Source: Candidatus Thorarchaeota archaeon (GTDB lineage: Archaea > Asgardarchaeota > Thorarchaeia > Thorarchaeales > Thorarchaeaceae). From it: a DNA stretch of 32,000 nucleotides. The notes beneath the pieces were generated by a model. It worked only from the letters and a program-made list of their open reading frames with translations. It ran no database searches and was not told where the DNA came from. The DNA lies in the NCBI GenBank assembly GCA_008080745.1, contig SHMX01000001.1:120001-152000 (forward strand), read 5' to 3'. Both the position numbers and the translations under genes were made by a program. How positions within the stretch are numbered: position 1 is the first letter of the stretch; each line of letters starts with the position of its first letter. Below are positions 3,276 to 24,994 of the stretch, one piece after another.

Positions 3276-4448
3276 TAATATCGCTATCACAACGATGATA
3301 TTCTCAATGGTTGGTCCGAGGAAGGCTGCCAGGACCATCATCAGGGGCAGTCCAGGAATGACCAGAAGGAAGTCCACCACTCGCATGAGTATCTCGTCTG
3401 TCTTGCCTCCAAAGTATCCTGCAGTCAGACCTACGACGACTCCCACCCCTGTGGATAATGCAGTGGCTAAGATACCAATGGTCAATGAGATCCTAGAACC
3501 ATAGACTAACTGACTCCATGCGTCAGCTCCCTTATCCGTAGTTCCTAGTAATCCAAAGTAGTCTCCATATGCAATAACTTCAATTGATTGTAGCTTGGCC
3601 GTCACAGTCCCGGTATAATTTTGCCAAGGATTTTCTCCTTGAAAACTTCGAAATAATTTTGTTGGAGCAAGCCCGATTGCAATAGTAAGCTCATCACGAG
3701 GGTCTTCTTGTATTCCATCTTCCTCGATCATTCCACCCCATCCCTCAATGAGGTCAAAGAAGTTCAAGTCTATCCTGCGAGTCTGGTATTGTTCTGAATA
3801 GGGAGGATAGGATTGATAGACTCTTCTCCAGTTTCCTGAAGAATCTACAAGCCAAATATATACCTTGAACATCAAGCCACCAATATCTTCTTCTGCAAAA
3901 GTTCCTGTCATTGAAACTGATAAACCGAATGTGATATTTACATCACTGGGAGTGCTTTCGTAATCCCAGGAAAACGTCTGATTCACATATATAAAATCCT
4001 TACAATCAGGTAAATCACTGTACGGGTCAATTGTGTAATTTAATCGAGTCCCAGCAGTATAATCGAAAGTAAGATTCACGTGTCCCCCTTTTGTAGCATC
4101 ATTGGTGGGACTATACGAATGTGAATAGAGATGAGAAGAATTCCCAGCATAATGCACATTCGGTGTGTTCATAAAAAACGGATCAGGAGCAACCTGAGAT
4201 GTCACAACACCCTCTGGATCAAAAACAGCCATCCATTCTGGTGCAAGAAAGGTTGGTGCTATTTTATTACCAGGAGCAGGGTCATGTGTAGCTAGAGTTG
4301 GAGCTGCAATGGCAACACCAGAATAAATCAGTAGAATAGCCAGGCCGATTATTCCAATTCGATGTCGTCGATATTCTCTCCAGAAACCAGTCAATGATTC
4401 GTACCAAGTACTATCTCGCCAGCTTCCTTTTTCGGGTTCGGAAGTCAT
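2877..4448 (-). CDS. dppC: Peptide ABC transporter permease DppC/OppC paralogue 1, with large extracytoplasmic insert
   Basis: LGTTDKGADAWSQLVYGSRISL, EAA-like loop YVESARAIGASDTYIIFRHILPN, PSWGRML and LNPRLR; ~230-aa soluble domain after TM1; GAGGT SD before the ATG. Confidence 0.95.
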   Translation of the reverse strand: MTSEPEKGSWRDSTWYESLTGFWREYRRHRIGIIGLAILLIYSGVAIAAPTLATHDPAPGNKIAPTFLAPEWMAVFDPEGVVTSQVAPDPFFMNTPNVHYAGNSSHLYSHSYSPTNDATKGGHVNLTFDYTAGTRLNYTIDPYSDLPDCKDFIYVNQTFSWDYESTPSDVNITFGLSVSMTGTFAEEDIGGLMFKVYIWLVDSSGNWRRVYQSYPPYSEQYQTRRIDLNFFDLIEGWGGMIEEDGIQEDPRDELTIAIGLAPTKLFRSFQGENPWQNYTGTVTAKLQSIEVIAYGDYFGLLGTTDKGADAWSQLVYGSRISLTIGILATALSTGVGVVVGLTAGYFGGKTDEILMRVVDFLLVIPGLPLMMVLAAFLGPTIENIIVVIAILGWTGTSRLIRSQVMAEKNKAYVESARAIGASDTYIIFRHILPNVTPILFADITLGVVAAILSESGLAFLGLTDPNEPSWGRMLADAQGTGGFSNGAWWVVVFPGLMITILSLAFTFVGHTLDQVLNPRLRER

Positions 4449-4525
4449 TGTTCAATACCTCTATTAGACTCTAATAGTTACAGAAACTGCGAGATATTAA
4501 TCCAATTAATAACATTATGGAATTA

Positions 4526-4557
4526 AGAAAAAAGAAACTGGCTAGCAGATAGCCAGT
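4526..4557 (-). terminator. Stem-loop plus U-tract upstream of dppC paralogue 1
   Basis: ACTGGCTA(4537-4544)-GCAGA-TAGCCAGT(4550-4557), then TTCTTTTTTC on the minus strand. Confidence 0.65.
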
Positions 4558-4568
4558 CAAACAGTATC

Positions 4569-4877
4569 ATCAGCTGTTTTTTATTCGAGGGTATGCAACA
4601 GCTGATCAAAACGTGGACAAGCTTGGACATATATCGATTGACTCTTTGATATATTGACCTGTATACGGTAGCACCGGCAGCTCGGCCACCGGGAGTGTGT
4701 ATAATACCATCAGAAGTGGCGTTTATTAGGAATCATGTCTAAGACAGGTATGCCGCCGTGAGTTGCACGGAGGCATAAAACGCCTGTGAAGAGGAAATAA
4801 GACAGTACCAGTCCTCTGTGACCAGTGATGCAGCCTCGATGAAGCAGGAAACAGACAGCAGATGAGGACTCCGGTCC
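4569..4877 (+). ncRNA. Candidate structured RNA or mobile-element remnant (unclassified)
   Basis: Several stems: 4569-4578/4597-4606; 4629-4637/4646-4654; 4744-4760/4766-4787; 4811-4816/4864-4869; GGAC-TCCG-GTCC at 4866-4877. No credible protein. Family not recognised. Confidence 0.3.
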
Positions 4878-4881
4878 ACCT

Positions 4882-5217
4882 TTATCCAAGTTCTGTGCAA
4901 CGGTCAAGAACACCGTATAATAGGTTAGCCACAAAGTTTGCCAAGATGGCTGTAATTGCAATAATCATGAAGATTGCTTGAACGACTGGATAATCAAGAA
5001 CAAAGAAACTAGTGAAAATATAACGACCTAAACCATACCAATTGAAGACCGTTTCTATCAAAGTTGTACCAGTTATTAGACCACCAAATGTTATTGCAAT
5101 AATCGTGACCATTGGCAACATTGCATTCTTCAGACCGTGTTTGTATAATACCTGATTCTCTTCCAAACCTTTTGCTCTTGCAGTTAGAATATAATCCTCT
5201 GTCATGACATCAACAAG
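4882..5217 (-). pseudogene. 5'-truncated dppB paralogue remnant (C-terminal ~110 aa)
   Basis: LVDVMTEDYILTARAKGLEENQVLYKHGLKNAMLP...LLYGVLD is collinear with dppB at offset 395. It has no 5' two-thirds, starts directly after the dppB terminator, and the conserved DPRIKYG end is replaced by DRCTELG. Confidence 0.85.
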
Positions 5218-5220
5218 ATA

Positions 5221-5256
5221 GAAAATAAAAGAAAGGAGAAACGACCCTATGGGTCG
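5221..5256 (-). terminator. Stem-loop plus U-rich tract after dppB
   Basis: CGACCC(5242-5247)-TAT-GGGTCG(5251-5256), followed on the minus strand by TTTCTCCTTTCTTTTATTTTC. Confidence 0.65.
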
Positions 5257-5276
5257 ACTCCTCTAGGCTGAAAGGA

Positions 5277-6326
5277 TTAACCGTACTTGATCCGAGGATC
5301 TAGTACACCATACAACAAGTCAGCCACAAAGTTTGCCAAGATGGCTGTAATTGCAATAATCATGAAGATTGCTTGAACGACTGGATAATCAAGTACGAAC
5401 AGACTGTCGAAAATATATCGACCCAGCCCGTACCAGTTGAACACCGTTTCGGTAAGCGTCGCTCCGTTTATCAAGAACCCGAAGGTCATAGCAATAATCG
5501 TGACCATTGGCAACATTGCATTCTTCAGACCGTGCTTGTACAAGACTTGATTCTCGTCGAGACCCTTCGCACGTGCAGTTAGGATGTAATCCTCTGTCAT
5601 AACATCAATCAGGTTGTTTCTCATATAGAGGAAATATCCACCGTAACCTCCAACTCCTAATGCAATCATTGGAAGGAAGAGGTGATGGAGGATGTCACCT
5701 GCGATGTATAGTGCACCCAGCGGGTCTGTCTTTGCTGATACCCAGAGCTCATATGATATAGTACCACCTAGAGGAAAACCTATGAGGCCACCAGTCATAT
5801 TGGGCACATAAAATGCGAATACCATTAGTAGCATCATTCCCAACCAAAAGATTGGCAATGAGTATATGAATAACGCAAGAGTAACAGCACTAACGTCTTT
5901 TCTAGAACCAGGATCAGCAGCTACTTTCACACCAGTCCAGATACCAAGAATAATGGACACGATTGATGATGTACCCATCAAGAGAAGGGTATTTGGCAAT
6001 CGAGACATTAACTCATCAATAACCGGTTGCTGACTGATGAAAGATAGACCAAAGTTACCAGTAAACATGTTAACGAGATATCTCCAGAACATGTAGATCC
6101 AGTCAAAGATGTCTGGATCGGGAACCAGTCCGAATCGCTGGTAGAGACCTTGTAAGGCCTCTCTAGTAAGATTCCTTCTAAGTTCCTCACTGATCATGAG
6201 GTCTACTGGACTGACATCTAGTACAAGAGTAGGAAGTCTGAAGAGGAAAAAGTTGAAACATACAACAGCCACTACAAGAAGGAACATGTAGATACTTCTT
6301 CTAATGACATATTCTCGCAGTCCCAT
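5277..6326 (-). CDS. dppB: Peptide ABC transporter permease DppB/OppB
   Basis: GNFGLSF, PNTLLL, HLFLP, EDYILTARAKGL, LKNAMLP, LDYPVVQ and DPRIKY. ATG at 6326 after GGAGAGT is preferred over the ORF-track TTG at 6341. Confidence 0.95.
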   Translation of the reverse strand: MGLREYVIRRSIYMFLLVVAVVCFNFFLFRLPTLVLDVSPVDLMISEELRRNLTREALQGLYQRFGLVPDPDIFDWIYMFWRYLVNMFTGNFGLSFISQQPVIDELMSRLPNTLLLMGTSSIVSIILGIWTGVKVAADPGSRKDVSAVTLALFIYSLPIFWLGMMLLMVFAFYVPNMTGGLIGFPLGGTISYELWVSAKTDPLGALYIAGDILHHLFLPMIALGVGGYGGYFLYMRNNLIDVMTEDYILTARAKGLDENQVLYKHGLKNAMLPMVTIIAMTFGFLINGATLTETVFNWYGLGRYIFDSLFVLDYPVVQAIFMIIAITAILANFVADLLYGVLDPRIKYG

Positions 6327-6430
6327 ACTCAGACTCTCCAATTTTAAATATACCTAGTACGACTAAGTACCGTGATACAAGTTAGTATATGATTACCCCC
6401 CATATAAGGTTGATGTTTCGGGTGATGAGT

Positions 6431-6474
6431 AAAAATTGAAAAAAGAAGGAGGGAGAAAGGCCCGTAGGCCTTTC
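6431..6474 (-). terminator. Stem-loop plus pyrimidine/U tract after dppC paralogue 2
   Basis: GAAAGGCC(6455-6462)-CGTA-GGCCTTTC(6467-6474), then CCTTCTTTTTTCAATTTTT on the minus strand. Confidence 0.7.
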
Positions 6475-6489
6475 AGCCAATCATGATTT

Positions 6490-6889
6490 ATTATCTCTCT
6501 CTGAGTCGTGGATTGAGGACCTGATCTAGAGTATGGCCCACAAAGGTGAAGGCCAGTGAGAGAATCGTGATCATAAGTCCTGGAAAGACCACAACCCACC
6601 AGGCACCGTTGCTGAATCCACCGGTACCCTGTGCGTCAGCCAGCATTCTGCCCCAGCTTGGTTCGTTGGGGTCGGTAAGACCGAGAAAGGCCAGACCTGA
6701 CTCGGAGAGGATTGCAGCAACCACTCCTAAAGTAATATCCGCAAACAGAATGGGGGTCACATTGGGCAGGATATGTCTGAAGATGATGTAGGTGTCAGAG
6801 GCACCGATCGCCCGTGCGGACTCGACATACGCCTTGTTCTTCTCAGCCATAACTTGCGACCGTATCAGCCGCGATGTCCCCGTCCAACC
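6490..6889. repeat. Direct repeat copy B: identical to 2876-3275
   Basis: Direct comparison; see copy A. Confidence 0.95.
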
Positions 6890-8053
6890 CAATATCGCTA
6901 TCACAACGATGATATTCTCAATGGTCGGTCCGAGGAAGGCTGCCAGGACCATCATCAGAGGTAATCCAGGAATGACCAGAAGGAAGTCCACCACTCGCAT
7001 GAGTATCTCGTCGGTCTTGCCTCCAAAATATCCTGCAGTCAGACCAACAATGACACCAACAGCTGTGGATAATGCAGTGGCCAAGATACCAATGGTCAAT
7101 GAGATCCTAGAACCATAGACCAATTGACTCCATGCGTCAGCTCCCTTATCCGTGGTTCCCAGTACTCCAAAGTAGTCACCATATGCTACAAGACTCACTT
7201 CTTCAACAGTTAATGTTACACTTCCAGTGTAATTCAATGATGGAGTTTCACCAAGGTGATATCTGAAGTTATCTGTAGGAGCCAAACCAACTGCAACAGT
7301 TAATTCATCTGTGGGGTCTTCTTGAACTCCGTCATCTTCCACCATACCTCCCCATGCGTTGTTGAGATCAAAGAAGTTCAAGTCGATCTTTCGAGTTTGA
7401 AATTCCGAAGAATAGGGTGGAAACGATCTGTATACTCTCTGCCAATCTCCTGAAGAGTCAATTAGCCAAATGTATGTCTTAAACATCAATCCCGAGTTTT
7501 CTTCAGTGGCAAAAGTGCCAGTAAGAGAAACAGAGTAAGTAAAAGTGATGTTGACATCGCTTGGGAGTCCCTCAAATGGCCAAGTAAAGTTCTGCATAAA
7601 TATGACAAAGTCTTCTGAATCGGGATATTGGCTCATGGGATTTGGTGGAGCCCAGTTCATTCTATCTCCTGCCTTATGCTCCCATGTCATATTTACTCGA
7701 CCATCATTTCCGGCACCAGTAAAATGATCGTAGGAAAATTTACTACTATTGCCAAATGTACGAAAAGTTGGTTCGTTTGTCAGTTGGGGATCAGGCATAT
7801 ATTCATCTGTTAAAACACCTTCAGGGTCAAATACAGCCATCCACTCAGGGGCCAGAAAAGATGGTGCAACTTTTTTCCCTGGAGCGGGATCATGTGTTGC
7901 AAGCCAAGGAGCGGCAAAAGCCATACCAACAAATAGGAAAAGTACAATAATTCCTAGTATGCCTATCTTATGTTTTCTGTATTCTTTCCAGAATCCGGTG
8001 AGGCTCACGTACCAGTTGCTGTCTTTCCAACTGGAGCTTTTTGAATCGGACAC
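6491..8053 (-). CDS. dppC: Peptide ABC transporter permease DppC/OppC paralogue 2, with large extracytoplasmic insert
   Basis: Same motifs as paralogue 1; GGAGGT SD 6 nt before the GTG start. Confidence 0.95.
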   Translation of the reverse strand: MSDSKSSSWKDSNWYVSLTGFWKEYRKHKIGILGIIVLFLFVGMAFAAPWLATHDPAPGKKVAPSFLAPEWMAVFDPEGVLTDEYMPDPQLTNEPTFRTFGNSSKFSYDHFTGAGNDGRVNMTWEHKAGDRMNWAPPNPMSQYPDSEDFVIFMQNFTWPFEGLPSDVNITFTYSVSLTGTFATEENSGLMFKTYIWLIDSSGDWQRVYRSFPPYSSEFQTRKIDLNFFDLNNAWGGMVEDDGVQEDPTDELTVAVGLAPTDNFRYHLGETPSLNYTGSVTLTVEEVSLVAYGDYFGVLGTTDKGADAWSQLVYGSRISLTIGILATALSTAVGVIVGLTAGYFGGKTDEILMRVVDFLLVIPGLPLMMVLAAFLGPTIENIIVVIAILGWTGTSRLIRSQVMAEKNKAYVESARAIGASDTYIIFRHILPNVTPILFADITLGVVAAILSESGLAFLGLTDPNEPSWGRMLADAQGTGGFSNGAWWVVVFPGLMITILSLAFTFVGHTLDQVLNPRLRER

Positions 8054-8212
8054 ATTCTTACCTCCAATGCTGGGAGTTCGCAGGCAAAGGCCCTTATGAA
8101 AGCACCGCTTTCTGATTCCTAATACCTACTGTCCCTATGTACTGCTAACTATAACGGGGTGATTGTATGCTAAAAAAACTGCCTATCTCGGTATTCGTTG
8201 AAAATCGCATTT

Positions 8213-8536
8213 TCAATCAGAAGAATCCTCCAACGTATCAATAAAGGGATCGTCAGGAGTCACAGCTTCCTCAGCATGCATTCGCTTCTCTCGGGCTTTG
8301 ATAATATCTTTGGTTCGACGCGATGCCGCCCATAAATCTGCAAAGACCATTCCGACAAGGAACACTGTCAATACCCCAGTGAATGATAATAGAATTCCGA
8401 TAAATCTCAAGCTATCGTGAAGAAGTGCTAGGCCCAGACCACCAAATATCAAGATAAAAGGTATTGCCAAAATCCTCTTTCTTGGTTCCTCACGCGTTTC
8501 TGGGAACGACTTGATTCTCGGACTCATTGGTATCAA
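8213..8536 (-). CDS. Small two-TM hypothetical membrane protein
   Basis: Two hydrophobic segments (ILAIPFILIFGGLGLALL; FIGILLSFTGVLTVFLVGMVF) and a charged tail. The start is uncertain. Confidence 0.6.
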   Translation of the reverse strand: MIPMSPRIKSFPETREEPRKRILAIPFILIFGGLGLALLHDSLRFIGILLSFTGVLTVFLVGMVFADLWAASRRTKDIIKAREKRMHAEEAVTPDDPFIDTLEDSSD

Positions 8537-8880
8537 AGCTATCCATAAATTACCCCCTTTTACGGTTTTCGTCCTAGGCGTTTATTATATCAAAAATCGA
8601 AAATCACCCGCAACCCTTCTGGGCCTGAAATACACAATCGTTTCTTAGGTGTGATGACAATCAGCACAAGAGAGGTGTATCTAATTAAGGAAATTGTTAG
8701 CTTCTCTGCTTGTATTGAGAATTTCTGTGTTCCTGTGAAAACAGAATTACATCCGGTTCAAGAATCCTTCATTATCAGTATCCAAATCATCAATAACCAG
8801 TTGACCAAATCCCAAGGGTTATCAAGGCATAAGTCTCGGACCTATCATTAGTCTAATTTAGTACCGACGTGCTTGTGCCG

Positions 8881-8900
8881 TTAGGTATTTAAGAACCTAA
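8881..8900 (+). promoter_or_regulatory. TATA-like box inside an inverted repeat upstream of dppD (possible operator)
   Basis: TTAGGT-ATTTAAGA-ACCTAA, ~60 nt upstream of the ATG at 8958. Confidence 0.4.
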
Positions 8901-8957
8901 CCGAGCACACAGATTGTTACGGACGTGCTATTGTTCCGACGGAGAGTGCTACAATAT

Positions 8958-9947
8958 ATGAACCTGCTTGATGTAAGAAACTTGCGCATGTATTACCAAA
9001 CCCAGCAGGGATTGGTGAAGGCCGTCGACAATGTTACCCTACAGCTAGACTCCGGAGAATCGATTGGCCTGGCAGGCGAATCAGGTTGTGGAAAGAGCAG
9101 CTTGGCATATTCAATTATGCAGTTGTTACCACCAGCGGCGAATATTGTAGGAGGTAATATTTACTTTAAGGGAGACGACCTTCTAAGAAAAACAGCGAGA
9201 GAGATGCGTGACATCCGATGGAAGAATGTCGCAATTGTCTTTCAGGGTGCTATGAACGCTTTGAATCCTGTGTTCGAGATTGGTGAGCAGATTGCTGAAG
9301 CCATTCTTATGCACGAGAATGTTACGGAGGAGGAAGCTCTCGACCGTTGTGCTAAATTGTTTGAGATGGTTGGGCTAGATCCCGGCCGTATTCACAACTA
9401 TCCACACGAGTTCTCTGGAGGAATGCGACAGAGGGCTATGATTGCTATGGCTTTGGCATGTAATCCAGACCTTGTGATTGCAGACGAGCCTACAACAGCA
9501 CTGGATGTTACAATTCAAGCACAGATTCTCAAACTGATGCAAAAGCTTCAGAAAGACTTAGGTCTCTCACTGATTCTGATTACTCACGACTTGAGTGTAA
9601 TTGCAGAAACATGTGACAAGACCGCTATTATGTATGCAGGAAGAATTGCAGAGTTAGCTGATGTGGTTTCAGTATTCAAGGAACCCATTCATCCCTATGC
9701 TACAGGACTTGTAGGTGCAATTCCGAGCATGATTAAAGCAGAACAGAAGAAGCTGACATCAATTCCTGGATCACCTCCAGACCTTATAGATCCCCCAACA
9801 GGTTGCAGGTTCCATCCAAGATGCCCCTATGCAAAAGAGATCTGTTCCATTGAAGAACCGAGCTTTGACGAAATAGATCCTGGTCGATTTGTTTCCTGTC
9901 ACTTTGCAGAACAGCTAAAAGGAGAACTCACAGTAGACTTAGATTGA
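8958..9947 (+). CDS. dppD: Peptide ABC transporter ATP-binding protein DppD/OppD
   Basis: Walker A GESGCGKS, signature FSGGMRQR, Walker [13 protein letters not shown]-loop ITHDL, C-terminal GCRFHPRCP...C...CH Fe-S motif. ATG at 8958 after GGAGAGTG is preferred. Confidence 0.96.
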
Positions 9948-9961
9948 GGAGGTCCAAAATC

Positions 9962-11023
9962 ATGACATATGAAGAAAGTATTGAACTAAAAGGAGCCGAT
10001 GAGGCTACTGAAGGAGATACCATTATCAGGGTACAAAACCTACGGAAATGGTTCGAAGTAAACACAGGATTTCTCTCCTCACTCCTGTACAAACAAGAGC
10101 TCTATGTTAAAGCCGTTGATGGCGTCACCTTTGATATCAAAAAGGGTGAAGTTCTAGTACTAGCAGGAGAGTCTGGTTGTGGAAAGACAACCACTGGTAG
10201 ATGTGTTCTATATTTAGAGGAGCCAACTGATGGTACAGTATACTACATGGGTCAAGACTTGGGCACCATGGACCGAAATGAAATGAAAGAGATGCGAAAA
10301 CGAATGCAGATCACATTTCAAGACCCCTATGAATCTCTTAACCCAAAACAGAGTATCTATGGTATTGTATCAGAGCCACTGATGGTTCACAAAATTCCCT
10401 TATCACCAAGTCAGCGAAGACAACGTGTTCTAGAAGCATTGGAGAGTGTAGCTTTAACTCCAGCTGGAGATTATATTGACAGATATCCTCATGAACTGTC
10501 AGGTGGTCAGAGGCAGAGAATTTCAGTTGCTCGTGCATTAATTTTACATCCAGAGTTTATGGTTGCAGATGAGCCTGTATCAATGCTGGACGTATCCATT
10601 CGAGCTGAAATCTTGAATCTACTATTGCAGCTAAAGGATGAATTGGGTCTGACTTATCTGTTCATTACTCACGACCTTGCAGTTGCAACATATATCGCTG
10701 ATAGAATTGGAATTATGTACCTTGGAAAAATTATGGAGTTGGGTCCCGCTCATGAGGTAGCATTTAATCCAATGCATCCATACACTCGAGCGCTCATTTC
10801 AGCTGTCCCATCTGGAGACCCCACAGTCAAACGACGTGTTGAGTCACTGAAGGGAGAACCCCCAAGCCCTATCAATGTTCCATCAGGATGCAGATTCCAT
10901 CCTAGATGTCCATATGCACAGGTGAGATGTGTCGAAGAGATTCCAGAGGATCGTGACATGGGTGACGGTCACTTTGTTGCATGTCACTTTGCGGGCGAAC
11001 TACCCGATGAAGCACAATTCTAA
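9962..11023 (+). CDS. dppF: Peptide ABC transporter ATP-binding protein DppF/OppF
   Basis: [40 protein letters not shown]...VACH. GAGGAGGT SD before the ATG at 9962. Confidence 0.96.
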   Translation: MTYEESIELKGADEATEGDTIIRVQNLRKWFEVNTGFLSSLLYKQELYVKAVDGVTFDIKKGEVLVLAGESGCGKTTTGRCVLYLEEPTDGTVYYMGQDLGTMDRNEMKEMRKRMQITFQDPYESLNPKQSIYGIVSEPLMVHKIPLSPSQRRQRVLEALESVALTPAGDYIDRYPHELSGGQRQRISVARALILHPEFMVADEPVSMLDVSIRAEILNLLLQLKDELGLTYLFITHDLAVATYIADRIGIMYLGKIMELGPAHEVAFNPMHPYTRALISAVPSGDPTVKRRVESLKGEPPSPINVPSGCRFHPRCPYAQVRCVEEIPEDRDMGDGHFVACHFAGELPDEAQF

Positions 11024-11085: not shown

Positions 11086-11099
11086 CCTGAGGCTTGAAA

Positions 11100-11537
11100 A
11101 TGTCCGAGATAACCGACCGTCCCAGAGTGTTGCGCGCTATAAAAAAATGTTTGACTGATGCTTTTGATTTCTATCAAGATGCAATGGATATTCTCGACAG
11201 TATTGGTGAAGGATCGATGGGAGCAGGAATGACACCATTAGTTGGTGGATTTGCTATGAAGGACCCTAAAGATTCTTATCGAGAGGCGTTGATCAAAGTC
11301 GATGCTGCGGAAAATGCACTACTGCCTTTGATTAAACGTTTCAAAGATGGCAGAGTAAATGAATTACATTTCTCTGATGAAAAAGCCCTCGTAATGCTAA
11401 AGGATTTGGAATCATTTGACCACCAACTCCTTATCGATAAACTATCCCAACAGCGAGGACGAGAGTCGGTTTGGTATAGACTAAGAGAGCTTTCGGAAAA
11501 AGTCAAACACATATACAAACTCACAGCAGAAAGTTAG
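11100..11537 (+). CDS. All-helical hypothetical protein (~145 aa)
   Basis: Open frame with amphipathic helices flanking a Gly-rich loop (GEGSMGAGMTPLVGGF). No family recognised. Confidence 0.7.
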   Translation: MSEITDRPRVLRAIKKCLTDAFDFYQDAMDILDSIGEGSMGAGMTPLVGGFAMKDPKDSYREALIKVDAAENALLPLIKRFKDGRVNELHFSDEKALVMLKDLESFDHQLLIDKLSQQRGRESVWYRLRELSEKVKHIYKLTAES

Positions 11538-11606: not shown

Positions 11607-12275
11607 ATGGATAAGTCTGAATATATCAGTGACATCAAACAAGACCTAGAGAGAGCTAAAATAATCATAAAAGAGGTAATAGGTACTCTTGCTTCTATCT
11701 CGGATAAGATGGGGAAAGTAGAACAGAATATTAGAATTAAACAGTCTGCATTAGAAGGGGACTATATCATCCGAGAACCAAGCATAATCATTTGTGTTGA
11801 TTCTGTGGATTCAGAAAATAAGAGAGTGGTTACAGCTCTTCATAAGTTAGTTTCTAGAAACCATTTCAAGCCATCTGAGATAGCAATTGATGATGCAAAG
11901 GAGAATCTAGAAACGTGCAATAAAATAGCTAATATCTTGCGTGCTCATATTCAAAAATATGGCAGCACTATATCGGTGATTTATCTGAAGACTGGTAGGA
12001 TACCACAGAAATTAGATAAAAATAATGTAATCATCATTGGTAAAAGGTACCATCGCTGTGGAGAGGAGATTGCCGCCAGGCTAGAAAAAAACGGTTTTGA
12101 GGTTGTAACAGATCTGGGTGAATTCGGTGGAGGACGACTCATCTATCACATTATCACAGAGCTAGATAAATATGATAGAGGCAAAGCAGTTGAAATTACC
12201 ATATCTCAATCATTATTACATGATGAAGCCCAACTATTCAAATTGTTGAATGCTTTTTCATTGGTGGTGTCATAA
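11607..12275 (+). CDS. N-terminal coiled coil plus degenerate N-formylglutamate-amidohydrolase-like domain
   Basis: VIIIGKRYHRCGEEIAARLEKNGFEVVTDLGEFGGG...KAVEITISQSLLHDE parallels the FGase pattern (D-I-x-L-G ... GF-x-V ... Y-x-GG ... A-x-Q-I-E-I-x-R-x-L-Y-x-D-E). The strand that normally carries D-x-H-S reads VIYLKT. Confidence 0.5.
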   Translation: MDKSEYISDIKQDLERAKIIIKEVIGTLASISDKMGKVEQNIRIKQSALEGDYIIREPSIIICVDSVDSENKRVVTALHKLVSRNHFKPSEIAIDDAKENLETCNKIANILRAHIQKYGSTISVIYLKTGRIPQKLDKNNVIIIGKRYHRCGEEIAARLEKNGFEVVTDLGEFGGGRLIYHIITELDKYDRGKAVEITISQSLLHDEAQLFKLLNAFSLVVS

Positions 12276-12276
12276 T

Positions 12277-15200
12277 ATGTCAGAAAAGGGGGAGCCTTCT
12301 GAATTAGAACTGCCATTTCCTCAAGGAATAGAAGTTGAATTACAGGTTGTCAATAGAGATGGAAGCTGGATTCGCGGCGATGAAGTCCTTGATATCTTTG
12401 ACAAGATAGTTTCAAATGCGAAAATTCTATTGGATAAGAAAATAAAATCAACTACTATCGAATCAGTGCGGAGTAAGTATGGTCATTCCGCACAAACGGA
12501 GGAGGGTGAAAGAGGTTCCAGGATTGTAGCTAGTTATCAAGACCCGCAAGGAGTTACCAGAGAGTATACCCTCCTAGGACATGATCCAAATGTGACTTCA
12601 TTGACATGGATATTGGAGGTTGCAACACCACCATGCACCACTTTGGAAGAGCTCGCATGGTGGGTACAAACATTAATTGCAATTTCTTATGATTCAATTC
12701 CGAGAGAGTCTAGGATTGTCCTAATTTCTACAGGACTAAACCCTACACAAGAGTATCTCAAAAATCTCTCTTTCGGAGAACATCATCACATTCTTGGTCC
12801 AAAAGTCAGTGATGAAGTAAAAATTGCAGTTTACAATATGATACGAAATTTCATTCCACAGCTAATTTCTTTGTCTGTAAATTCACCTTTCGAGAATAAA
12901 GTCGCATCTGATGAAATATTAGTAGATGAGAAAGGGAGAACACGTGCTCCACGATGCAAACGCTCTATTCGCCTGTGGAAGAATACCACTCAAATGGGAC
13001 CGAGTAATGAGTTTGAATATATCCCATATCTAAAGACAGCGGATAAAGATGCATTTGCACGGCATGTCAATAGAAGTCCTCCAAGAATGGTGGACATGTA
13101 TCCATTTACAGACTATGGTACAATAGAGATACGTGTGACAGACACTCAGCTTTCAGTACCAAGAAGAATTGGAATTGCATTGATTTTACAAGCATTATCC
13201 TTGAAGGCAAAAAGAATGTTGGAAAAGGGAGAAACGATTCCCGATGTCGGTGCTCAAACCCTTGCGGCTAATAGAGAGGCTGCAATAGCAGCAGGATTAT
13301 GGGGTCCCTTCAGACCAGGACGAAGTGCTGATAATCCAGAATACATGAAAAAATACAATTATCAGACTCTTGACGATGGTACAGTATCTTCCAAGAAACG
13401 AAACCGGTTTTTGGGAGATGCAGTCATCTCTATGCTCTATATAATACGGGACGAATTAGAGGAACTGAATGCAATTGATAATCCATTCTTCCAAGCACTC
13501 CTGATATCGATCTATGGCAGTGAAACTGTTGAGCCACGTACTACGGGAGCAGATTTTCAACTGGATGTATATGCAAAGTCAGATTTCAATATGGTTGTCC
13601 TACTGAAAAGACTTGCAGAGATTACAAGAGAATGCTGTACAAACTGGCTTTATGATCCTCTTGATGGTACCCCTCAACTCCCAACTTGGTTATGCTGGTG
13701 GAAAGGAATTGAACCAGAAATAGTAATTGACGCGGATAAGGTCTTTTCCGGCCAAATAGCTCACTTCATGATAACCATCAAGAATTCACTGGATAGAGAC
13801 ATCACAAATCTTACAATTAAATACACAATAGAAGACTCTGATAGAAATGTGGTGGAAGAAAATATAGTTCCTATAGCTAAGATTGAATCAGGAGAAATTC
13901 ATCTTTCACGTCTTAGTTTCCAAACAGAAAGGGGAGTATCAGCATACAATGTATTTGCTGCTATAGGAATTGCTGGTAGAGAGATTCCCATTACAGGCAC
14001 TATAAGCACCTATTGGATGAGAGTCACCGCAAGACCAGGTACAACAACTCAATTCGTTGATGGAAAAACGCCTGTACGCTTCTCGGGAGAGATAGATACA
14101 AACTATCCCTTCAGTACACAAGTGGATTGCCGTATAGAAGTGCTTCTTCCATCAAAAGAGAAGGTCATTGCATCTGTGTCCGGACCTCTCGAAATTGAAA
14201 GAGGTGAATTGCGAGTAATCAATCAGGATGATTTCCCCCCTTTGATCATTCCAGAAGATACAGGAGAGGGGGTTCAGAGATGCATTCTTCAGGTTAGTCT
14301 CCATGAAGAAACAGGTAATGAGATTACTTCTGGAACTTCTAGACCATTCTATGCAGGTTTTGTGAAGAAGGGGCCACAAGTACTTCTGCGTACTGATGCA
14401 AAAGAAGCCCATTCACCTGGAGAAATTATTCATGGAGAAGTTGCCATTAAAACGAGGGGGAAGAAAATATCTCCAAATGCCTCAGTTCATGTAGTATTTC
14501 ATACAGATGCTGGAGAGATTTTTGATATTGCAAGTGTACGCATAGCCGATCTTTCTTCAGATTCTGTGGCATTTAGATGGAGAGTTCCAACCATTTCCAA
14601 TGATGCACCTGAAGCACGAACGGGAGCGATAAAAGCTTGGTTAGAACATAATGAGGAAAAACTGAGCTCCACAGAGTCAAATCGATTGAGAATAGCTCAC
14701 CTAGGAGTTCGAGTAAGCATTGACTCTCTAAGAGCTCCAACACAATCTGAAATTGGTAAAAAGATAACAGGTTGGCTAAGAATAAGAAGAAACACAGAAT
14801 TAGGTGAGCCCTCAAACATCGAGATGCTTTTTAGATTTCCAAGTGGTGAGGAACATCTTGTTCTTAAACAATCCGTAAAACAGAGTAGAAATCTTTCATT
14901 TGCATTTGGCCCTTTGGAAGTTCCAGAGCCCAAAGATGAGAAGAATCCAAGTCATGTGACTTTGGTAGCACGTTTACTATACGGAGGTGTAATCCTAGAT
15001 CAAAAAACACAGAACATAGATTTGGGGATTGGTACTCCTGAAGAAATCGCACAAATAAAATTCAGTGGCATACCCAAATTTGTTTTACCGGATGAAACGA
15101 TAGCGGGAACATTGCATATCACAAATATTTCTTCGACCTCATTAGATTGCATTCTCAATGTGTATCTGGAGTCAACAGCTGGAACTGAACACTTAATCTC

Positions 15201-15711
15201 ACGAAACTTGACCATAGTAAAAAATGGAACTAAGTTAATTCCTACAGAATTTAAAATACCATTAATTGCTGAAATGAGTACTGCCCAGCTGAAGGTAGTA
15301 CTTGAGTGTGCTAAACGAACCTTCGAGGGAAGACTAAGGCTTAAGATAAAAGCAATTGAAGAACCAGTATTCAATGCACAGTTCACTATAAGGAACCAAT
15401 CAGGAGAAGAAATTCCGGGTTTGGTTCAAAGAGTAACTCCAATTACTATAAACGTAGAGTTGGAGAGTAAAAAAGGGGGATTTCAAAACCTACAAGGAAT
15501 ACTAAAAATTCTCTCCAGACGGGAAGTTGTAAAAGAATTCAATATTGAAATTCCTGATACCGATACCAGTAATTATCAAGTAGAACTAGAATGGATTACA
15601 CCGGATGTTATGGTTACAGCGTATTATTTAGAATTGATACTGCTAAAACAAGGAAAGACCCTACCTGCAAGAGCAATACATCAACCAAGAAAACAATTCA
15701 CAGTCTATTAA
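12277..15711 (+). CDS. GCS2/YbdK-type carboxylate-amine (gamma-glutamyl) ligase fused to ~6 Ig/arrestin-like beta-sandwich domains
   Basis: GIEVELQVV, LEVATPPC, LISTGLNP, FGEHHHI, IPQLISLSVNSPF and YGTIEIRVTDTQ. The ~660-aa C-terminus from ~nt 13717 shows alternating beta-strand patterns. GGTGGTG SD; the ATG lies 1 nt after the upstream stop. No signal peptide. Confidence 0.85.
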   Translation: MSEKGEPSELELPFPQGIEVELQVVNRDGSWIRGDEVLDIFDKIVSNAKILLDKKIKSTTIESVRSKYGHSAQTEEGERGSRIVASYQDPQGVTREYTLLGHDPNVTSLTWILEVATPPCTTLEELAWWVQTLIAISYDSIPRESRIVLISTGLNPTQEYLKNLSFGEHHHILGPKVSDEVKIAVYNMIRNFIPQLISLSVNSPFENKVASDEILVDEKGRTRAPRCKRSIRLWKNTTQMGPSNEFEYIPYLKTADKDAFARHVNRSPPRMVDMYPFTDYGTIEIRVTDTQLSVPRRIGIALILQALSLKAKRMLEKGETIPDVGAQTLAANREAAIAAGLWGPFRPGRSADNPEYMKKYNYQTLDDGTVSSKKRNRFLGDAVISMLYIIRDELEELNAIDNPFFQALLISIYGSETVEPRTTGADFQLDVYAKSDFNMVVLLKRLAEITRECCTNWLYDPLDGTPQLPTWLCWWKGIEPEIVIDADKVFSGQIAHFMITIKNSLDRDITNLTIKYTIEDSDRNVVEENIVPIAKIESGEIHLSRLSFQTERGVSAYNVFAAIGIAGREIPITGTISTYWMRVTARPGTTTQFVDGKTPVRFSGEIDTNYPFSTQVDCRIEVLLPSKEKVIASVSGPLEIERGELRVINQDDFPPLIIPEDTGEGVQRCILQVSLHEETGNEITSGTSRPFYAGFVKKGPQVLLRTDAKEAHSPGEIIHGEVAIKTRGKKISPNASVHVVFHTDAGEIFDIASVRIADLSSDSVAFRWRVPTISNDAPEARTGAIKAWLEHNEEKLSSTESNRLRIAHLGVRVSIDSLRAPTQSEIGKKITGWLRIRRNTELGEPSNIEMLFRFPSGEEHLVLKQSVKQSRNLSFAFGPLEVPEPKDEKNPSHVTLVARLLYGGVILDQKTQNIDLGIGTPEEIAQIKFSGIPKFVLPDETIAGTLHITNISSTSLDCILNVYLESTAGTEHLISRNLTIVKNGTKLIPTEFKIPLIAEMSTAQLKVVLECAKRTFEGRLRLKIKAIEEPVFNAQFTIRNQSGEEIPGLVQRVTPITINVELESKKGGFQNLQGILKILSRREVVKEFNIEIPDTDTSNYQVELEWITPDVMVTAYYLELILLKQGKTLPARAIHQPRKQFTVY

Positions 15712-20540: not shown

Positions 20541-22151
20541 ATGGAGAAAGTTCCTTTGTCAAAAACGAGAAGACTATTGTTGGAATTTGAAACCGAGGAG
20601 GTTGGAAAACAAGCAAGAAGTAATTCAGAGGTTCGAAAAGAATTGGTTCGTGCTATATCAGACTCATCGGATATCGTAAGACAAAGAGCACTGCTTGCGA
20701 CTATAGATTTAGCAGATCCAACAGTCGTTGATGATGTAACAAAAGCTATGAAAGATGACGAGGAAGAAGTTCGCATTGCTGCCGCTCAATCATTAGCATT
20801 TTATCATCAACCAAAGACTATCCCGATTCTTCTTGAAGGGTTGAAAGATTCTGACCCCTGGGTACGTTCTCACTGCGCAAAGGGACTATCCAAACTTATA
20901 CACGGACCTCTCTGGGCAAGACTACCCGAAGAAGATATTGACAAGATTTTATCTGATTTTCCTGGAATGGTAGAAGAAGATATTCGACAATATCTTACCG
21001 AGCTTAAACTTGAACCTGAAGCTATTGATTCGCTAATGAAGTGGAAACGGAAAGATTACGAGATAGATATTGACCCCTCAAGATTGGAAGAAGAAATGCT
21101 GAGTAAACCCATCATATTTGAATCCGAGAAAATTACAGATAAAACCAGACCGATGACACAAGCAGACGAGATTGCATCCATTCTTTCGGAACTACCCAGA
21201 GATGTTCTATCAACTCTACCACCAGAGGACTTGAAGCGCTTAACTCCAAAAACAGCAAGACAGCTCGTTGACTCCTTAAAAGAATCATTCCCAACTGAAA
21301 CCGAACCAGAAGAGGAAGTAAGAAGGAAAAAGAAAGACACGGGGAAGGTTAGAAAGGTCAGAAAGGTCCAAAGAGTCAAGAAAAAGAGTGCTCGAGAAGA
21401 GATGCTGGCCAAACTACCTGATGAGGTCAAGGAGAGTATGCCCCCAGAAGTGTTAGAGAATATCAGTGTTGAAGAACTTGAAGCATTGTTGAATATGACT
21501 GCCGACTCCGAAGGAGTTGCTGTTGACGTCCCAGAAGAAAAGGTAGAAGAAAAGAAACCGAAAAAGGTAAAGAAAAAAGTAGTCAAGAGAGTAAAGAAAC
21601 GTAAGAAGAAAAAATCACCGCAGCTTGAAGATATAGCTGGGATAGGCCCAGCAACTGTAGAAAGTCTAAAGGCCGCAGGATTCAACTCAGTTCAAATGTT
21701 ATCAGAAGCAAAGCCAGAAGAATTGATCGAAAAGGTGGTAGGTGTAGGATCTGCCAGTGCAGAGAAAATGATAGCAGATGCAAAAATATTAGTTTCTGGT
21801 GAAGAGGAAAAAACGAAACCTGAAAAGAAAGGTAGAAAGGAGAAAATGCTTGCAAAATTGCCTGCTGAAGTTAGAGAATCCATGGGCAAAGAGGCAATTG
21901 ATGCCATGACCGAAGAGGAAGTTGAGATGCTCATTTCTTCACTTGGAACTATTGAAACCGAAGCACCTGTAACACCTGAAAAGTCAGTAGATTCGAAAAT
22001 GGATATTCTTGTTGAGAAATATGGTAGAGAGAAGGCAGAGATACTTGCATTAATTCCGGATGATATGCTTGCAAGTATACCTGAAGATCAAATCAAAGAG
22101 ATGGATATTCCAACCCTCAAATCGCTCTCACAAGCTTTTGAGCACACTTAG
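20541..22151 (+). CDS. HEAT-repeat protein with four ~32-aa helical repeats, Lys-rich linkers and a tandem HhH domain
   Basis: Three HEAT_2/PBS-type repeats (D..DIVRQRA, D.EEEVRIAAA, DSDPWVRSHCA); HhH module LEDIAGIGPATVESLKAAGF...VVGVGSASAEKMI at ~21622-21785. Confidence 0.8.
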   Translation: MEKVPLSKTRRLLLEFETEEVGKQARSNSEVRKELVRAISDSSDIVRQRALLATIDLADPTVVDDVTKAMKDDEEEVRIAAAQSLAFYHQPKTIPILLEGLKDSDPWVRSHCAKGLSKLIHGPLWARLPEEDIDKILSDFPGMVEEDIRQYLTELKLEPEAIDSLMKWKRKDYEIDIDPSRLEEEMLSKPIIFESEKITDKTRPMTQADEIASILSELPRDVLSTLPPEDLKRLTPKTARQLVDSLKESFPTETEPEEEVRRKKKDTGKVRKVRKVQRVKKKSAREEMLAKLPDEVKESMPPEVLENISVEELEALLNMTADSEGVAVDVPEEKVEEKKPKKVKKKVVKRVKKRKKKKSPQLEDIAGIGPATVESLKAAGFNSVQMLSEAKPEELIEKVVGVGSASAEKMIADAKILVSGEEEKTKPEKKGRKEKMLAKLPAEVRESMGKEAIDAMTEEEVEMLISSLGTIETEAPVTPEKSVDSKMDILVEKYGREKAEILALIPDDMLASIPEDQIKEMDIPTLKSLSQAFEHT

Positions 22152-23428
22152 TCCTCTCCACCGCGCACAACAACAGCAAACTCCGTGGCCAGACGACCAT
22201 ACCATTCTAGTAAATCACGCATATTATCTACATGACGATATGTTCCATTACCATATTGAGCCATAGCCAACATAAGCTCTTCATCTATCTCACTCCGTTC
22301 ACCAAGACCAATACAATAGATGACCAAACGAGATCGGTCTGGAAATCTTTCCTTAAGCACCTTTAATGGGGGAGGCCCAAAAGTAGTCATACCATCTGTA
22401 AGCATTATGAGCATAGTGGGCTTTTTCTTCTCTCCGAACGCATCTAGAATATCGGCAGCAGTCTGTAAGGAAGACCCCATTGCAGTGAGGGTTCCCCCTT
22501 CTTCAACTTTATCAACCACATGTGTACTTATGATTTGTAGGCCAAGAGCTTTCTCTCTGCCGGTACACTCAACGAAAGGCTGTACTTCCCCAGTTTCCGA
22601 ATCAAGGAATGTCATTTCACTAACAGATTTTTCAAAGGTGATTACTGCAACCTTTTCACCATAACCTCTACCAACCTTTTCGGCCAGATAAAGTAGTACT
22701 GCCATTGCTGCAGCCTCGGCTCTACTAACTTTAGTTCCCTCTTCGAATCTATCGAGAAAGGCCTGTACCTCTGGATTATCCCCAGCCAAATCCTTTAGGC
22801 CCTCTCGTGCATGAGCGATATCTTGAACTGGGACATCGGTGGTTTTCATCGAACCACTAGTATCGATACACAGGATTGCATTGAAGGGTGTAGCAATTCC
22901 AATAGTTTTGAACTGATAACCTGTACGTTCCTTTAATGCTTCAAAGGCTAGTTTTGCAAAGCTCTTACCGGTCAGAGAGGGTCTAGTTATGAGAATCTCG
23001 ACCTTTACATCTAGTTCAGGCCAATTGAAGGACATACCAGGATACACTAGCCGTCCACCAATCAACTTCTCTAGTGAATCAAATGATTCAGCTGCTCTGC
23101 TAACAAGATCATCGGTATTGGCATCCTCTGTTAGGGGTTTGAGACCAAATTCCACATATTCCAAAGCAATCATATCTTCATCATAAAGGGATACTTCAAC
23201 CTCATCCCCTTCCATCAATAGTGATGCCTCTAGAACGAGTGAATCAACCACAATCTGATTTTCATCAATCTCTTTATTCTTGCGTATCTCTGCTGCACCC
23301 CAAAAACTACTGTGGGGATCTTCAAAGATCACAATTGACCCAATATCTGCTTTTAGCTTCTTTGCAGTATCGGGATGTAGATTGGCGTAACCTCTAAGGT
23401 CTCCGCCATCAATGATTTCAAGCTTCAC
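22148..23428 (-). CDS. Cdc48/NSF N-domain-like + VWA protein, intact MIDAS
   Basis: The N-terminus GYANLHPDTAKKLKADIGSIV...NQIVVDSLVLEASLLMEGDEVEV fits a double-psi beta-barrel. VWA motifs CIDTSGSM, GGTLTAMG, LIMLTDG, IYCIGLG. The stop overlaps the stop of the convergent HEAT gene. Confidence 0.8.
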   Translation of the reverse strand: MKLEIIDGGDLRGYANLHPDTAKKLKADIGSIVIFEDPHSSFWGAAEIRKNKEIDENQIVVDSLVLEASLLMEGDEVEVSLYDEDMIALEYVEFGLKPLTEDANTDDLVSRAAESFDSLEKLIGGRLVYPGMSFNWPELDVKVEILITRPSLTGKSFAKLAFEALKERTGYQFKTIGIATPFNAILCIDTSGSMKTTDVPVQDIAHAREGLKDLAGDNPEVQAFLDRFEEGTKVSRAEAAAMAVLLYLAEKVGRGYGEKVAVITFEKSVSEMTFLDSETGEVQPFVECTGREKALGLQIISTHVVDKVEEGGTLTAMGSSLQTAADILDAFGEKKKPTMLIMLTDGMTTFGPPPLKVLKERFPDRSRLVIYCIGLGERSEIDEELMLAMAQYGNGTYRHVDNMRDLLEWYGRLATEFAVVVRGGED

Positions 23429-23503: not shown

Positions 23504-24994
23504 CTAGGTAAATAACTCTGAAATATGAGCAAATACCTCGTCAAAACTAGATATCTCCTCATCTGTAGCCTCTAATTCATCGTATAATGAAGGTGGTATC
23601 TCGTGAGATGCCAATTCAAGAGATGTTAATGCCTGCTTACCATGGGTCTGGAGCATAGCAACTCGTAAGAAGCCTAGATTCTCTCTGATCCAAAGATGCA
23701 TCTCTTTTGAACCGTTTCGTTTTCTAAGTGCGGCAATAATCGAATCAAATTGGATTCCATTATAAGCACCCTTTCTAACAGATTCTGGCATAGGCCAGGT
23801 ATGACTAGGTGGAATCATCATATCTAGAGATGCTACATCTACATCTTTTCGTAAAGATATTTTCGCTAAAATATGTTCAATTGATACCTTTGGAGAGGAA
23901 GTTGCTGTGAATTGCTGAGCTTTTGCAATAGTTTGTGACCTAGTGCTGAAAGGTCGATTGATAAGAAAAAGAGCATTACCGGCCAATATTCGTTGTGCAT
24001 CTGATAGAGTACCAGGAAAATCATGAGAGAGTAGAAAAAGAATGAGATCTACTGCTTGAACCGAAAGAAAACTGTAATCAGTTCCAAAGAGGATTTTTCT
24101 AGACCATTCCTTATCCCCATTTCTAATTCTGTCCTTTGCCATCTCAAACAATACAGGTATATCTTTTCCATGGAGGCTTGAGGTTTCCCCAAAGAGAGCA
24201 GGATCTCTAAGAATCTGATACAATTTGGGATCGCCAGGATTCATTCCACAATGTGCCAATATCACCCTCAAGTCGTCTTTTATCTTTGGTTCTCTTTCAC
24301 GAACACTCGAAACGAGACTATGAATCTTCTCAGCTGTACGAATATTTCGGGTATCGAATATAACAGGTATCCTAAGTTCAGCAGCACGCTTCAAAACACG
24401 AGCGGTCATGTCATCTTTTATTTCATCAACGAATAGTTGTGCAAGTGGATGTAACTTGAGACCCCTCAATCCTAGTGTCCTAATGGCGTAATCTAATTCA
24501 TCCACGGCGGAATTTCTTGAGATAGCTGATGCATCCTTTGGGTCAACTCGGCAAAATCCAATTAGTCTCGAAGAATTAGGAGAACGGGTTGTCCATCCTG
24601 CAATTTTCTCGTTAGATGTATGAAATGAAGGTACCTCTGGAAATCCATTTTTTGCATAATCGTCAGTATATGGAAAAACTACTGTTCTATCCACTAACCA
24701 TCCATGATTCAACCTATTCCAACTTTTCTTTGCCTTAAAAATCTCAGAAACAAAAGGCGTGGGAACTACCCCAACAGGTTCAAAGAGAAAACCGTCATTA
24801 TCTTTGATATCTTCGATTAGTTTTTGCATCTCAAACCATAACAAAGCGTAGAATTCGTAAGCTCCAGAGGGTGTATTTTGATGTCCTTTCTCACGACCCA
24901 TATGATGATGAAAATCTACAATATACAAACGATATTCATCATTCTTCTTGATACCCTGTCTGGGTATATCACGAGTCGCTCGTACAAGTAACAC
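23504..24994 (-). CDS. Amidohydrolase_2-type TIM-barrel metallohydrolase plus ~150-aa C-terminal domain
   Basis: IVDFHHHMG, IGFCRVDP, LGLRGLKLHP, RIPVIFDT, VILAHCG, ETS, KILFGTDYS, RILAGNA; GGTGAGGT SD before the GTG. Confidence 0.88.
   Translation of the reverse strand: MLLVRATRDIPRQGIKKNDEYRLYIVDFHHHMGREKGHQNTPSGAYEFYALLWFEMQKLIEDIKDNDGFLFEPVGVVPTPFVSEIFKAKKSWNRLNHGWLVDRTVVFPYTDDYAKNGFPEVPSFHTSNEKIAGWTTRSPNSSRLIGFCRVDPKDASAISRNSAVDELDYAIRTLGLRGLKLHPLAQLFVDEIKDDMTARVLKRAAELRIPVIFDTRNIRTAEKIHSLVSSVREREPKIKDDLRVILAHCGMNPGDPKLYQILRDPALFGETSSLHGKDIPVLFEMAKDRIRNGDKEWSRKILFGTDYSFLSVQAVDLILFLLSHDFPGTLSDAQRILAGNALFLINRPFSTRSQTIAKAQQFTATSSPKVSIEHILAKISLRKDVDVASLDMMIPPSHTWPMPESVRKGAYNGIQFDSIIAALRKRNGSKEMHLWIRENLGFLRVAMLQTHGKQALTSLELASHEIPPSLYDELEATDEEISSFDEVFAHISELFT

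Follow-up and report, generated by a model that had tools for sequence, protein, structure and literature searches.

A 32,000-nucleotide stretch of a Candidatus Thorarchaeota archaeon genome (contig SHMX01000001.1; the window, with a G+C content of about 40%) contained a gene at positions 12277 to 15711 whose product, as judged from its sequence, joins an intact enzyme for ATP-dependent amide-bond formation to an arm made up of six immunoglobulin (Ig)-like domains. The reading that we favored, at slightly better than an even chance, was that this protein is a cytoplasmic amide ligase in a module with a metal hydrolase and a VWA-domain protein, and that the arm and a small partner protein encoded just upstream, neither of them catalytic, serve to position the enzyme or to hold what it acts on. 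The ligase-hydrolase-VWA gene set was conserved and apparently undescribed, as full-text literature searches on Asgard and archaeal GCS2-type ligases found no publication describing it.

A divergent YbdK/GCS2-type ligase domain with intact catalytic motifs

The gene and its catalytic portion were as follows:
12277-15711, + strand: ligase-arm gene, starting at ATG 12277, with a 1144-aa product
12277-13707, + strand: ligase domain (residues 1 to 477), a divergent YbdK/GCS2-type carboxylate-amine ligase with a glutamine-synthetase fold

The + strand frame was open from 12250 to 15711, and the ATG at 12277 gave a 1144-aa protein that agreed in length and N-terminus with all of the homologues. The stop codon of the upstream gene lay at 12275, 1 nt ahead of this ATG. 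A search of sequencing runs listed no RNA run with this DNA, and the two DNA runs that it did list were from marine sediment and may be its source.

The catalytic motifs in the ligase domain were GIEVE (G17 to E21), E114, GEHHH (E168 to H171), and GTIEIR (E284 and R286). These positions were invariant or more than 90% conserved in 28 full-length homologues, and the motif residues were kept as well in 13 fused and stand-alone relatives. In the case of the first motif (G17-I-E19-V-E21), which aligned with GIELE of YbdK, E21 was invariant and E19 was at least 90% conserved. FGEHHH (residues 166 to 171) aligned with FGQHVH of YbdK, and GTIEIR (residues 281 to 286) aligned with GTVEVR. A profile made from the 13 fused and stand-alone relatives matched Escherichia coli YbdK (1r8g) with an E value of 5.5e-15, in three collinear stretches that corresponded to the GhExE strand, the G-x-H-x-H segment, and the E-x-R strand. 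GhExE is the Mg/ATP signature of the GCS2/YbdK superfamily and lies on core strand 1 (PMC2588565).

The full-length protein had no Pfam match. Residues 1 to 480 scored 17.6 bits (E = 0.0026) against PF04107 (GCS2), which was under the cut-off of 21, a value that many homologues of the ligase passed. The NCBIfam model of the YbdK family, TIGR02050, gave an E value of 6e-14 and a score of 52 versus a cut-off of 176, and for every glutamate-cysteine ligase model the protein fell far short of the trusted cut-off. A whole-genome PF04107 scan was blank, and so revealed no canonical GCS2 elsewhere in the genome. Two ATP-grasp genes of about 300 aa matched PF02955 (glutathione-synthetase family), but control archaea matched too, which made this result uninformative. 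By its motifs and profile match, the ligase domain is a member of the YbdK/GCS2 superfamily, yet it belongs to a divergent branch that fails every curated cut-off.

The comparison with YbdK/GCS2 proteins (PF04107 and TIGR02050; E. coli 1r8g and Salmonella 1tt4) indicated a shared glutamine-synthetase fold and the three collinear motif strands or segments, and ATP-dependent amide ligase activity would be expected in common. Compared with YbdK, the Asgard catalytic domain has about 100 additional aa and invariant segments peculiar to it (e.g., TEEGERGSR and the consensus APRC-x-RSIRL), is fused to a 667-aa arm, and is locked to genes for an Amidohydro_2 hydrolase and a VWA protein. Because the catalytic core is intact, the chemistry of the enzyme is probably acyl-phosphate amide ligation, in which a carboxylate would be activated as an acyl-phosphate and then joined to an amine to give an amide bond. 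It is membership in the family that suggests a gamma-glutamyl bond.

The 1144-aa protein had neither a hydrophobic N-terminus nor a signal peptide, and no membrane segment was detected (the highest Kyte-Doolittle 19-residue mean was 1.15). Given these features and the requirement for ATP, the protein is likely to be cytoplasmic. An earlier note on this DNA, made from the letters alone, had described the protein as lacking a signal peptide and transmembrane segment, as having E-x-E, E, H, and E-x-R positions intact, and as unusual in architecture for its family. All of these points held: the catalytic residues lie where the note had placed them and are conserved in 28 homologues, and set beside the 372 aa of YbdK, the protein is a real, conserved fusion to a large non-catalytic beta-sandwich arm.

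The arm consists of six beta-sandwich units

To characterize the arm, we used an AlphaFold2 model that was built on the alignment of 28 sequences and had a mean predicted local distance difference test score (pLDDT) of 74. Residues 478 to 1144 were modeled as all-beta, with about 45 strands and block pLDDT values mostly of 70 to 91. We grouped the strands into six units of 109 to 115 aa each:
13708-14040, + strand: unit D1 (residues 478 to 588), CARDB-like beta-sandwich, from the AlphaFold2 strands
14041-14367, + strand: unit D2 (residues 589 to 697), beta-sandwich, from the AlphaFold2 strands; covered by Foldseek matches of the whole arm to arrays of CARDB and macroglobulin domains
14368-14700, + strand: unit D3 (residues 698 to 808), beta-sandwich with the motif HSPGEIIHGEVAI at residue 712
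14701-15036, + strand: unit D4 (residues 809 to 920), beta-sandwich with IGKKITGWLRI at residue 826
15037-15363, + strand: unit D5 (residues 921 to 1029), beta-sandwich with PDETIAGTLHI at residue 938
15364-15711, + strand: unit D6 (residues 1030 to 1144, plus the stop codon), with a C-terminus that is conserved family-wide and ends in FTVY

The earlier note had proposed six beta-rich units of about 105 aa, and in the model they did appear as beta-sandwiches, at the slightly greater length given above. The longest conserved arm stretch of the family consensus was in D4. Self-BLAST of the whole protein revealed no internal repeats, and in-register profile similarity was confined to D3, D4, and D5 (E values of 8e-5 for D3-D4, 6e-4 for D3-D5, and 0.013 for D4-D5), which suggested that these three units are probably old tandem duplicates. 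The motifs at residues 712, 826, and 938 fell on the second strand of D3, D4, and D5, respectively.

Structural searches placed the arm units among CARDB/DUF11 and macroglobulin-type sandwiches, which they resemble in the model. Foldseek matches in the PDB were alpha-2-macroglobulin (A2M) and complement macroglobulin (MG)-domain arrays and other tandem sandwiches. Among AlphaFold DB clusters, two entries annotated as glutamate-cysteine ligase had the same overall architecture (one of 1226 aa, aligned over residues 11 to 1143, and one of 1003 aa); these were followed by CARDB, DUF11, IPT, and A2M arrays, and ranks 3 to 9 included five CARDB proteins that matched over residues 477 to 1144 with E values of 1e-23 to 5e-22. 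A search of the ESM Atlas agreed, with CARDB present in 66 to 100% of the members of the Atlas rows. Language-model neighbors of units 3 and 4, which we treated as a lead, were CARDB, MG2, NPCBM_assoc, and Transglut_C clusters. The Pfam CARDB and DUF11 models did not match the arm. The arm profile did cross-match a DUF11/CARDB repeat protein indirectly, in 8 stretches (E = 3.6e-6), through the opening segment of D1.

CARDB/DUF11 and A2M MG-domain arrays, which are tandem seven-stranded sandwiches of about 110 aa, were the best structural matches to the arm. CARDB/DUF11 and macroglobulin arrays are mostly found on secreted or surface proteins, whereas the Asgard array would be cytoplasmic, had no Pfam match, and was seen only behind the ligase.

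The earlier note had also read the three motifs as an arrestin-N/Vps26/Spo0M signature, so that units 3 to 5 would be cargo-binding domains of that type. The motifs are real and stand at the opening of three related units, the arrestin domain is itself a type of Ig-like sandwich, and some Asgard genomes have been reported to contain genes for arrestin domains. However, the Arrestin_N, Arrestin_C, Vps26, and Spo0M Pfam models had no match at E values up to 10 in three overlapping arm pieces, and the structural and language-model neighbors were the CARDB, MG2, NPCBM_assoc, and Transglut_C types. The motif type (Pro-Gly/Asp-Glu followed by alternating hydrophobics) is equally typical of the start of CARDB and DUF11 units. 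Arrestin lobes are about 150 aa each and come as an N/C pair, whereas the arm has six tandem units of 109 to 115 aa. No arrestin-type fold was present among the listed PDB, AlphaFold DB, and Atlas matches in searches made with the 1144-aa model as a whole. We retained the motifs as features of D3, D4, and D5 and regarded an arrestin-type identity as very improbable.

The ligase-hydrolase-VWA module

The two genes that accompany the ligase were located on the opposite strand of the window:
23504-24994, - strand: Amidohydro_2 metal hydrolase of 496 aa (PF04909, E = 6e-11), about 8 kb from the ligase
22148-23428, - strand: VWA protein of 426 aa with VWA Pfam matches, the third member of the module

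In the alignment, the hydrolase retained its H-x-H, His, and Asp positions. In Helarchaeota and Methanomassiliicoccales loci with an arm-less ligase, the gene directly downstream of the ligase was homologous to the hydrolase gene of the window (E values of 3e-57 and 8e-28), and in the Methanomassiliicoccales locus the next gene after the hydrolase was homologous to the VWA gene (E = 5e-10). The 509-aa gene after the Helarchaeota ligase was considered as a split-off arm and rejected, as hhalign gave a probability of 0.15% and the gene encodes the amidohydrolase.

To examine how widely the gene set is distributed, we scanned 400 Asgard genomes, grouped in families f1 to f30. The ligase domain was present in 253 of the 400 genomes, and the hydrolase was present in 250. 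The lists of families were identical for the two genes: both occurred in f1 to f3, f11, f13, and f15 to f23, and both were missing from f4 to f10, f12, f14, and f24 to f30. Because relatives are not independent, this co-distribution was taken as a pattern and not as a statistic. The ligase and hydrolase genes were adjacent and on the same strand in 12 of the 12 fetched loci with a stand-alone ligase, as well as in an f11 locus (L065). The loci of f3, f15, f16, and a metagenomic relative had the hydrolase gene first, then the VWA gene, and then the ligase-arm and partner genes on the opposite strand, all tightly packed; in the three families, the VWA orthologue was between the ligase and the hydrolase and the gene set lay within about 8 kb. 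VWA orthologues were also found beside the ligase-hydrolase pair in the Methanomassiliicoccales, Helarchaeota, f17, and f19 loci. In arm-bearing lineages other than the Thor type, the hydrolase, together with a VWA gene, was at most 4 kb from the ligase.

The same f11 locus (L065:191-3130, genome G071) encodes a 979-aa ligase of the same family with a different tail, and an amidohydrolase gene is directly upstream of it. The tail consists of a basic, K/P/E-rich linker of about 200 aa followed by about 300 beta-rich aa, and it had no match to the arm profile.

Further genes near the module in the window included one possible accessory:
25133-27769, + strand: 878-aa protein, a possible accessory, weakly homologous to the VWA gene (7e-8) and to hydrolases from other loci

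This 878-aa protein had no Pfam match, and an 856-aa relative was encoded close to the module in a distant locus whose ligase has the arm (L022:477-3047). The - strand region from 28039 to 31699 encoded two further VWA paralogues (389 and 419 aa), one of which had a weak CDC48_2 match (E = 0.004), and a 411-aa protein with no Pfam match.

Distribution and history of the arm

A word-indexed search recovered more than 120 clusters of proteins of 1130 to 1153 aa with 50 to 80% identity, and the named ones were almost all from Thorarchaeota-type metagenome-assembled genomes (MAGs). We then used the arm alone in an exhaustive profile search of 1.84 billion protein representatives, and only 28 proteins matched. 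Every match tested that extended upstream of the arm had a ligase domain there; the MAG labels of the arm-bearing matches were Thor, Odin, "Asgardarchaeia", and one Korarchaeota. The other strong matches were shorter pieces that covered part of the arm, and the weakest included DUF11/CARDB-type repeat proteins. Among the profile matches, the arm occurs only as a fusion to the ligase.

In the 400-genome scan, the arm was found in 83 genomes of the Thor-type family and four other families (71 of 85 in f1, 1 of 1 in f2, 1 of 1 in f3, 5 of 5 in f15, and 4 of 6 in f16), and it was found in none of the remaining families, including 0 of 135 genomes in the largest one. The ligase domain was far more widespread, as described above. 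The arm-bearing proteins had a constant length of about 1140 to 1190 aa, and almost all of the arm matches were free of in-frame stops. Within the Thor-type family, identity was about 45% in the arm versus about 70% in the ligase domain. One protein, P0142 (1374 aa), had a longer arm in which the D4-D6 profile region matched twice, at residues 1001 to 1110 and 1117 to 1365.

Arm-less orthologues of 469 to 498 aa, which covered the whole ligase domain with 27 to 39% identity, were found in Helarchaeota, other Asgard MAGs, and Methanomassiliicoccales. Because they share the same module in most Asgard lineages and in a Methanomassiliicoccales genome, the arm seems to be an accessory and not the part that defines the chemistry or the class of target. 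In a maximum-likelihood tree of 28 ligase domains with a midpoint root, arm-bearing forms were in several basal groups, all of the arm-less Asgard forms were in one nested clade (support of 99/100), and the Methanomassiliicoccales pair was across the root. The simplest reading of this tree is a single gain and a single loss of the arm, with a root that is not secured. The ligase domain of P0142 grouped with a partial protein labeled Bathyarchaeia.

An upstream partner and other neighbors

The gene directly upstream of the ligase belongs to a family that is found next to most arm-bearing ligases:
11607-12275, + strand: partner gene, 222 aa, with a long N-terminal helix (residues 3 to 50) and a zinc-peptidase/FGase-like alpha/beta domain

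In distant lineages, members of this family immediately preceded the arm-bearing ligases, with spacings that ranged from a 4-nt overlap to a 70-nt gap in seven loci. The short form of the partner was detected in 64 of 85 genomes of f1, in f2, in 5 of 5 of f15, and in 6 of 6 of f16; elsewhere, there was one marginal match in f27 (E = 2e-4). The coupling was seen for most arm-bearing ligases, the exceptions being f3 and some Thor genomes, and in the coupled lineages the partner would be co-translated with the ligase.

The model of the partner (pLDDT of 86.7) had a 48-residue helix followed by an alpha/beta domain. The best Foldseek matches were YndL and PghP, and several AlphaFold DB matches were FGase entries; because the scores were tied, we assigned the partner to a fold class only. 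A search of PDB sequences with the partner profile returned coiled-coil noise only. In an alignment of 20 sequences, only D169 and G175 were invariant and no conserved His or Glu metal ligands were found, which suggested that the partner is most likely a pseudo-enzyme. The partner appears from its model to have a zinc-peptidase-like alpha/beta fold in common with FGase and with the poly-gamma-glutamate hydrolases PghP and YndL, but it differs from them in that it has no conserved metal ligands, no sequence-level match, and an additional coiled coil of about 50 residues.

Helarchaeota and f17 have longer relatives of the partner, of 391 aa (L017:1266-2441) and 413 aa (L056:5235-6476), encoded beside arm-less ligase and VWA genes; only their C-terminal domain matched the partner profile (E of about 1e-7). 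The partner family is thus not strictly tied to the arm.

Pfam gave nothing usable for the arm pieces, the 147-aa and 222-aa upstream proteins, or the 265-aa downstream protein. The 147-aa gene (11094 to 11537) was dropped as a candidate member of the module; it was a neighbor only in the Thor-type loci examined, and its product is helical and has no tag-like C-terminus. Farther upstream, positions 854 to 11023 held an oligopeptide-type ATP-binding cassette (ABC) transporter cluster with a binding protein, permeases that include two OppC-like paralogues, and OppD/OppF ATPases. This cluster preceded the ligase in the Thor-type loci examined and not in the other lineages examined.

In f2, an 805-aa protein that ends in an EAP30/Vps36 (ESCRT-II type) domain (L021:6892-9309; PF04157, E = 3e-19) was encoded directly upstream of the partner-ligase pair. 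Weaker relatives were found in two other arm-bearing lineages (L020:6922-9240 and L063:10560-11738), and the orthologue in the genome studied here (G000:C1:66913-69198) was about 63 kb away.

Proposed mechanism and the nature of the substrate

According to the reading that we favored, the ligase would form an amide that the Amidohydro_2 hydrolase is predicted to cleave or process further, and the VWA protein would serve as a metal-site binding module. The ligase of Thor-type, Odin-type, and a few further Asgard lineages carries six CARDB/macroglobulin-like beta-sandwiches, and the arm and partner would position the enzyme or hold a substrate or an assembly. Recruitment or scaffolding roles would suit the arm, the partner, and the VWA protein. 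The many non-catalytic binding parts favored a macromolecular target, and we judged a protein or peptide substrate to be just short of an even chance and a small molecule to be a possibility below that, with something else accounting for the rest.

Several observations weigh against this picture. In Thor-type genomes, the ligase and hydrolase were 8 to 10 kb apart, and the intervening genes (DUF92, Band7/NfeD, Rce1-like, and HEAT) are unrelated and include genes for membrane proteins. Because arm-less orthologues occur in the same module, the arm says little about the class of target. The ligase part of the AlphaFold2 model was patchy, with several segments at pLDDT values below 50, so substrate pockets cannot be read from it. 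The characterized GCS2 enzymes act on small molecules, and the genome encodes a gamma-glutamyltranspeptidase homologue (G000:C4:220495-221970; PF01019, E = 1.7e-139), which makes small-molecule gamma-glutamyl metabolism possible. A further point, the search for a tag gene, is described below.

The last two points belong to an explanation in which the protein is a small-molecule enzyme that makes a gamma-glutamyl amide or dipeptide (e.g., gamma-Glu-Cys or a gamma-glutamylated amine), the hydrolase acts later in the route, and the arm only builds an oligomer or scaffold. YbdK and GCS2 are the closest characterized relatives, the arm-less orthologues retain the same hydrolase neighbor, and the gene follows the oligopeptide transporter cluster in Thor-type genomes. 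Ligase-plus-hydrolase pairs are typical of gamma-glutamylation catabolic routes such as the Puu and Ipu pathways, and we counted this in favor of a small-molecule enzyme. In contrast, a VWA protein, a coiled-coil partner with a dead peptidase fold, and a 667-aa arm are odd company for a metabolic enzyme, the ligase was far below the trusted cut-offs for glutamate-cysteine ligases, and the transporter linkage was confined to the Thor-type loci examined. We considered this explanation to be a serious candidate but a rather doubtful one.

A second alternative was tagging with a dedicated Pup-like protein, which is a subset of the protein or peptide case. PafA is a member of the same superfamily, with a probable origin in GCS2 (PMC2588565), and the PafA/Dop/Pup system of Actinobacteria shares both the ligase superfamily and the ligase-plus-hydrolase logic with the Asgard module (PMC2588565), whose interaction-domain partners would also fit. 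However, no conserved small tag open reading frame (30 to 200 aa) was found near 23 loci, where each conserved cluster of small frames was a shadow of a large gene, although very short or fast-evolving tags could escape such a search. In addition, the hydrolase is a TIM-barrel amidohydrolase (Amidohydro_2, PF04909) of unrelated fold and, unlike Dop, is not paralogous to the ligase, the window held no gene for a proteasome or an AAA+ unfoldase, and the lineage is archaeal. Pup-like tagging with a dedicated tag appeared improbable.

The earlier note had reasoned from the arm to macromolecular substrates and had suggested a protein-modifying gamma-glutamyl ligase rather than a glutathione-pathway enzyme. 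This interpretation was supported in part: the VWA protein and the dead-peptidase, coiled-coil partner fit a macromolecular target better than a glutathione-pathway role, but the arm-less orthologues share the module, and no Pup-like tag gene was found near the 23 loci. The most far-reaching form of the idea would be a system for protein modification in archaea that is new and owes nothing to ubiquitin or Pup, in which the ligase writes an isopeptide-type amide mark, the Amidohydro_2 hydrolase erases it, and the VWA protein, partner, and arm select or read the targets. We regarded this as speculative and, on balance, unlikely.

Significance of the module

Because no known organisms are more closely related to eukaryotes than Asgard archaea, the machinery with which these archaea regulate their proteins is a subject of study. 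The gene set described here, present in about 60% of the Asgard genomes sampled, combines an amide ligase that depends on ATP with a metal hydrolase and several binding proteins that are not catalytic, and the 667-aa arm of the Thor type was seen only behind this ligase in 1.84 billion proteins. The substrate question is directly testable in vitro because the catalytic residues have been located and both arm-less and arm-bearing forms exist in nature. If the target is a metabolite, the module would represent a gamma-glutamyl-type pathway that was not known before. If the target is a protein, the module would add a third kind of conjugation chemistry in prokaryotes to the ubiquitin-like and Pup systems, and such a protein-modification system, if true, would be found in the archaeal lineage closest to eukaryotes.

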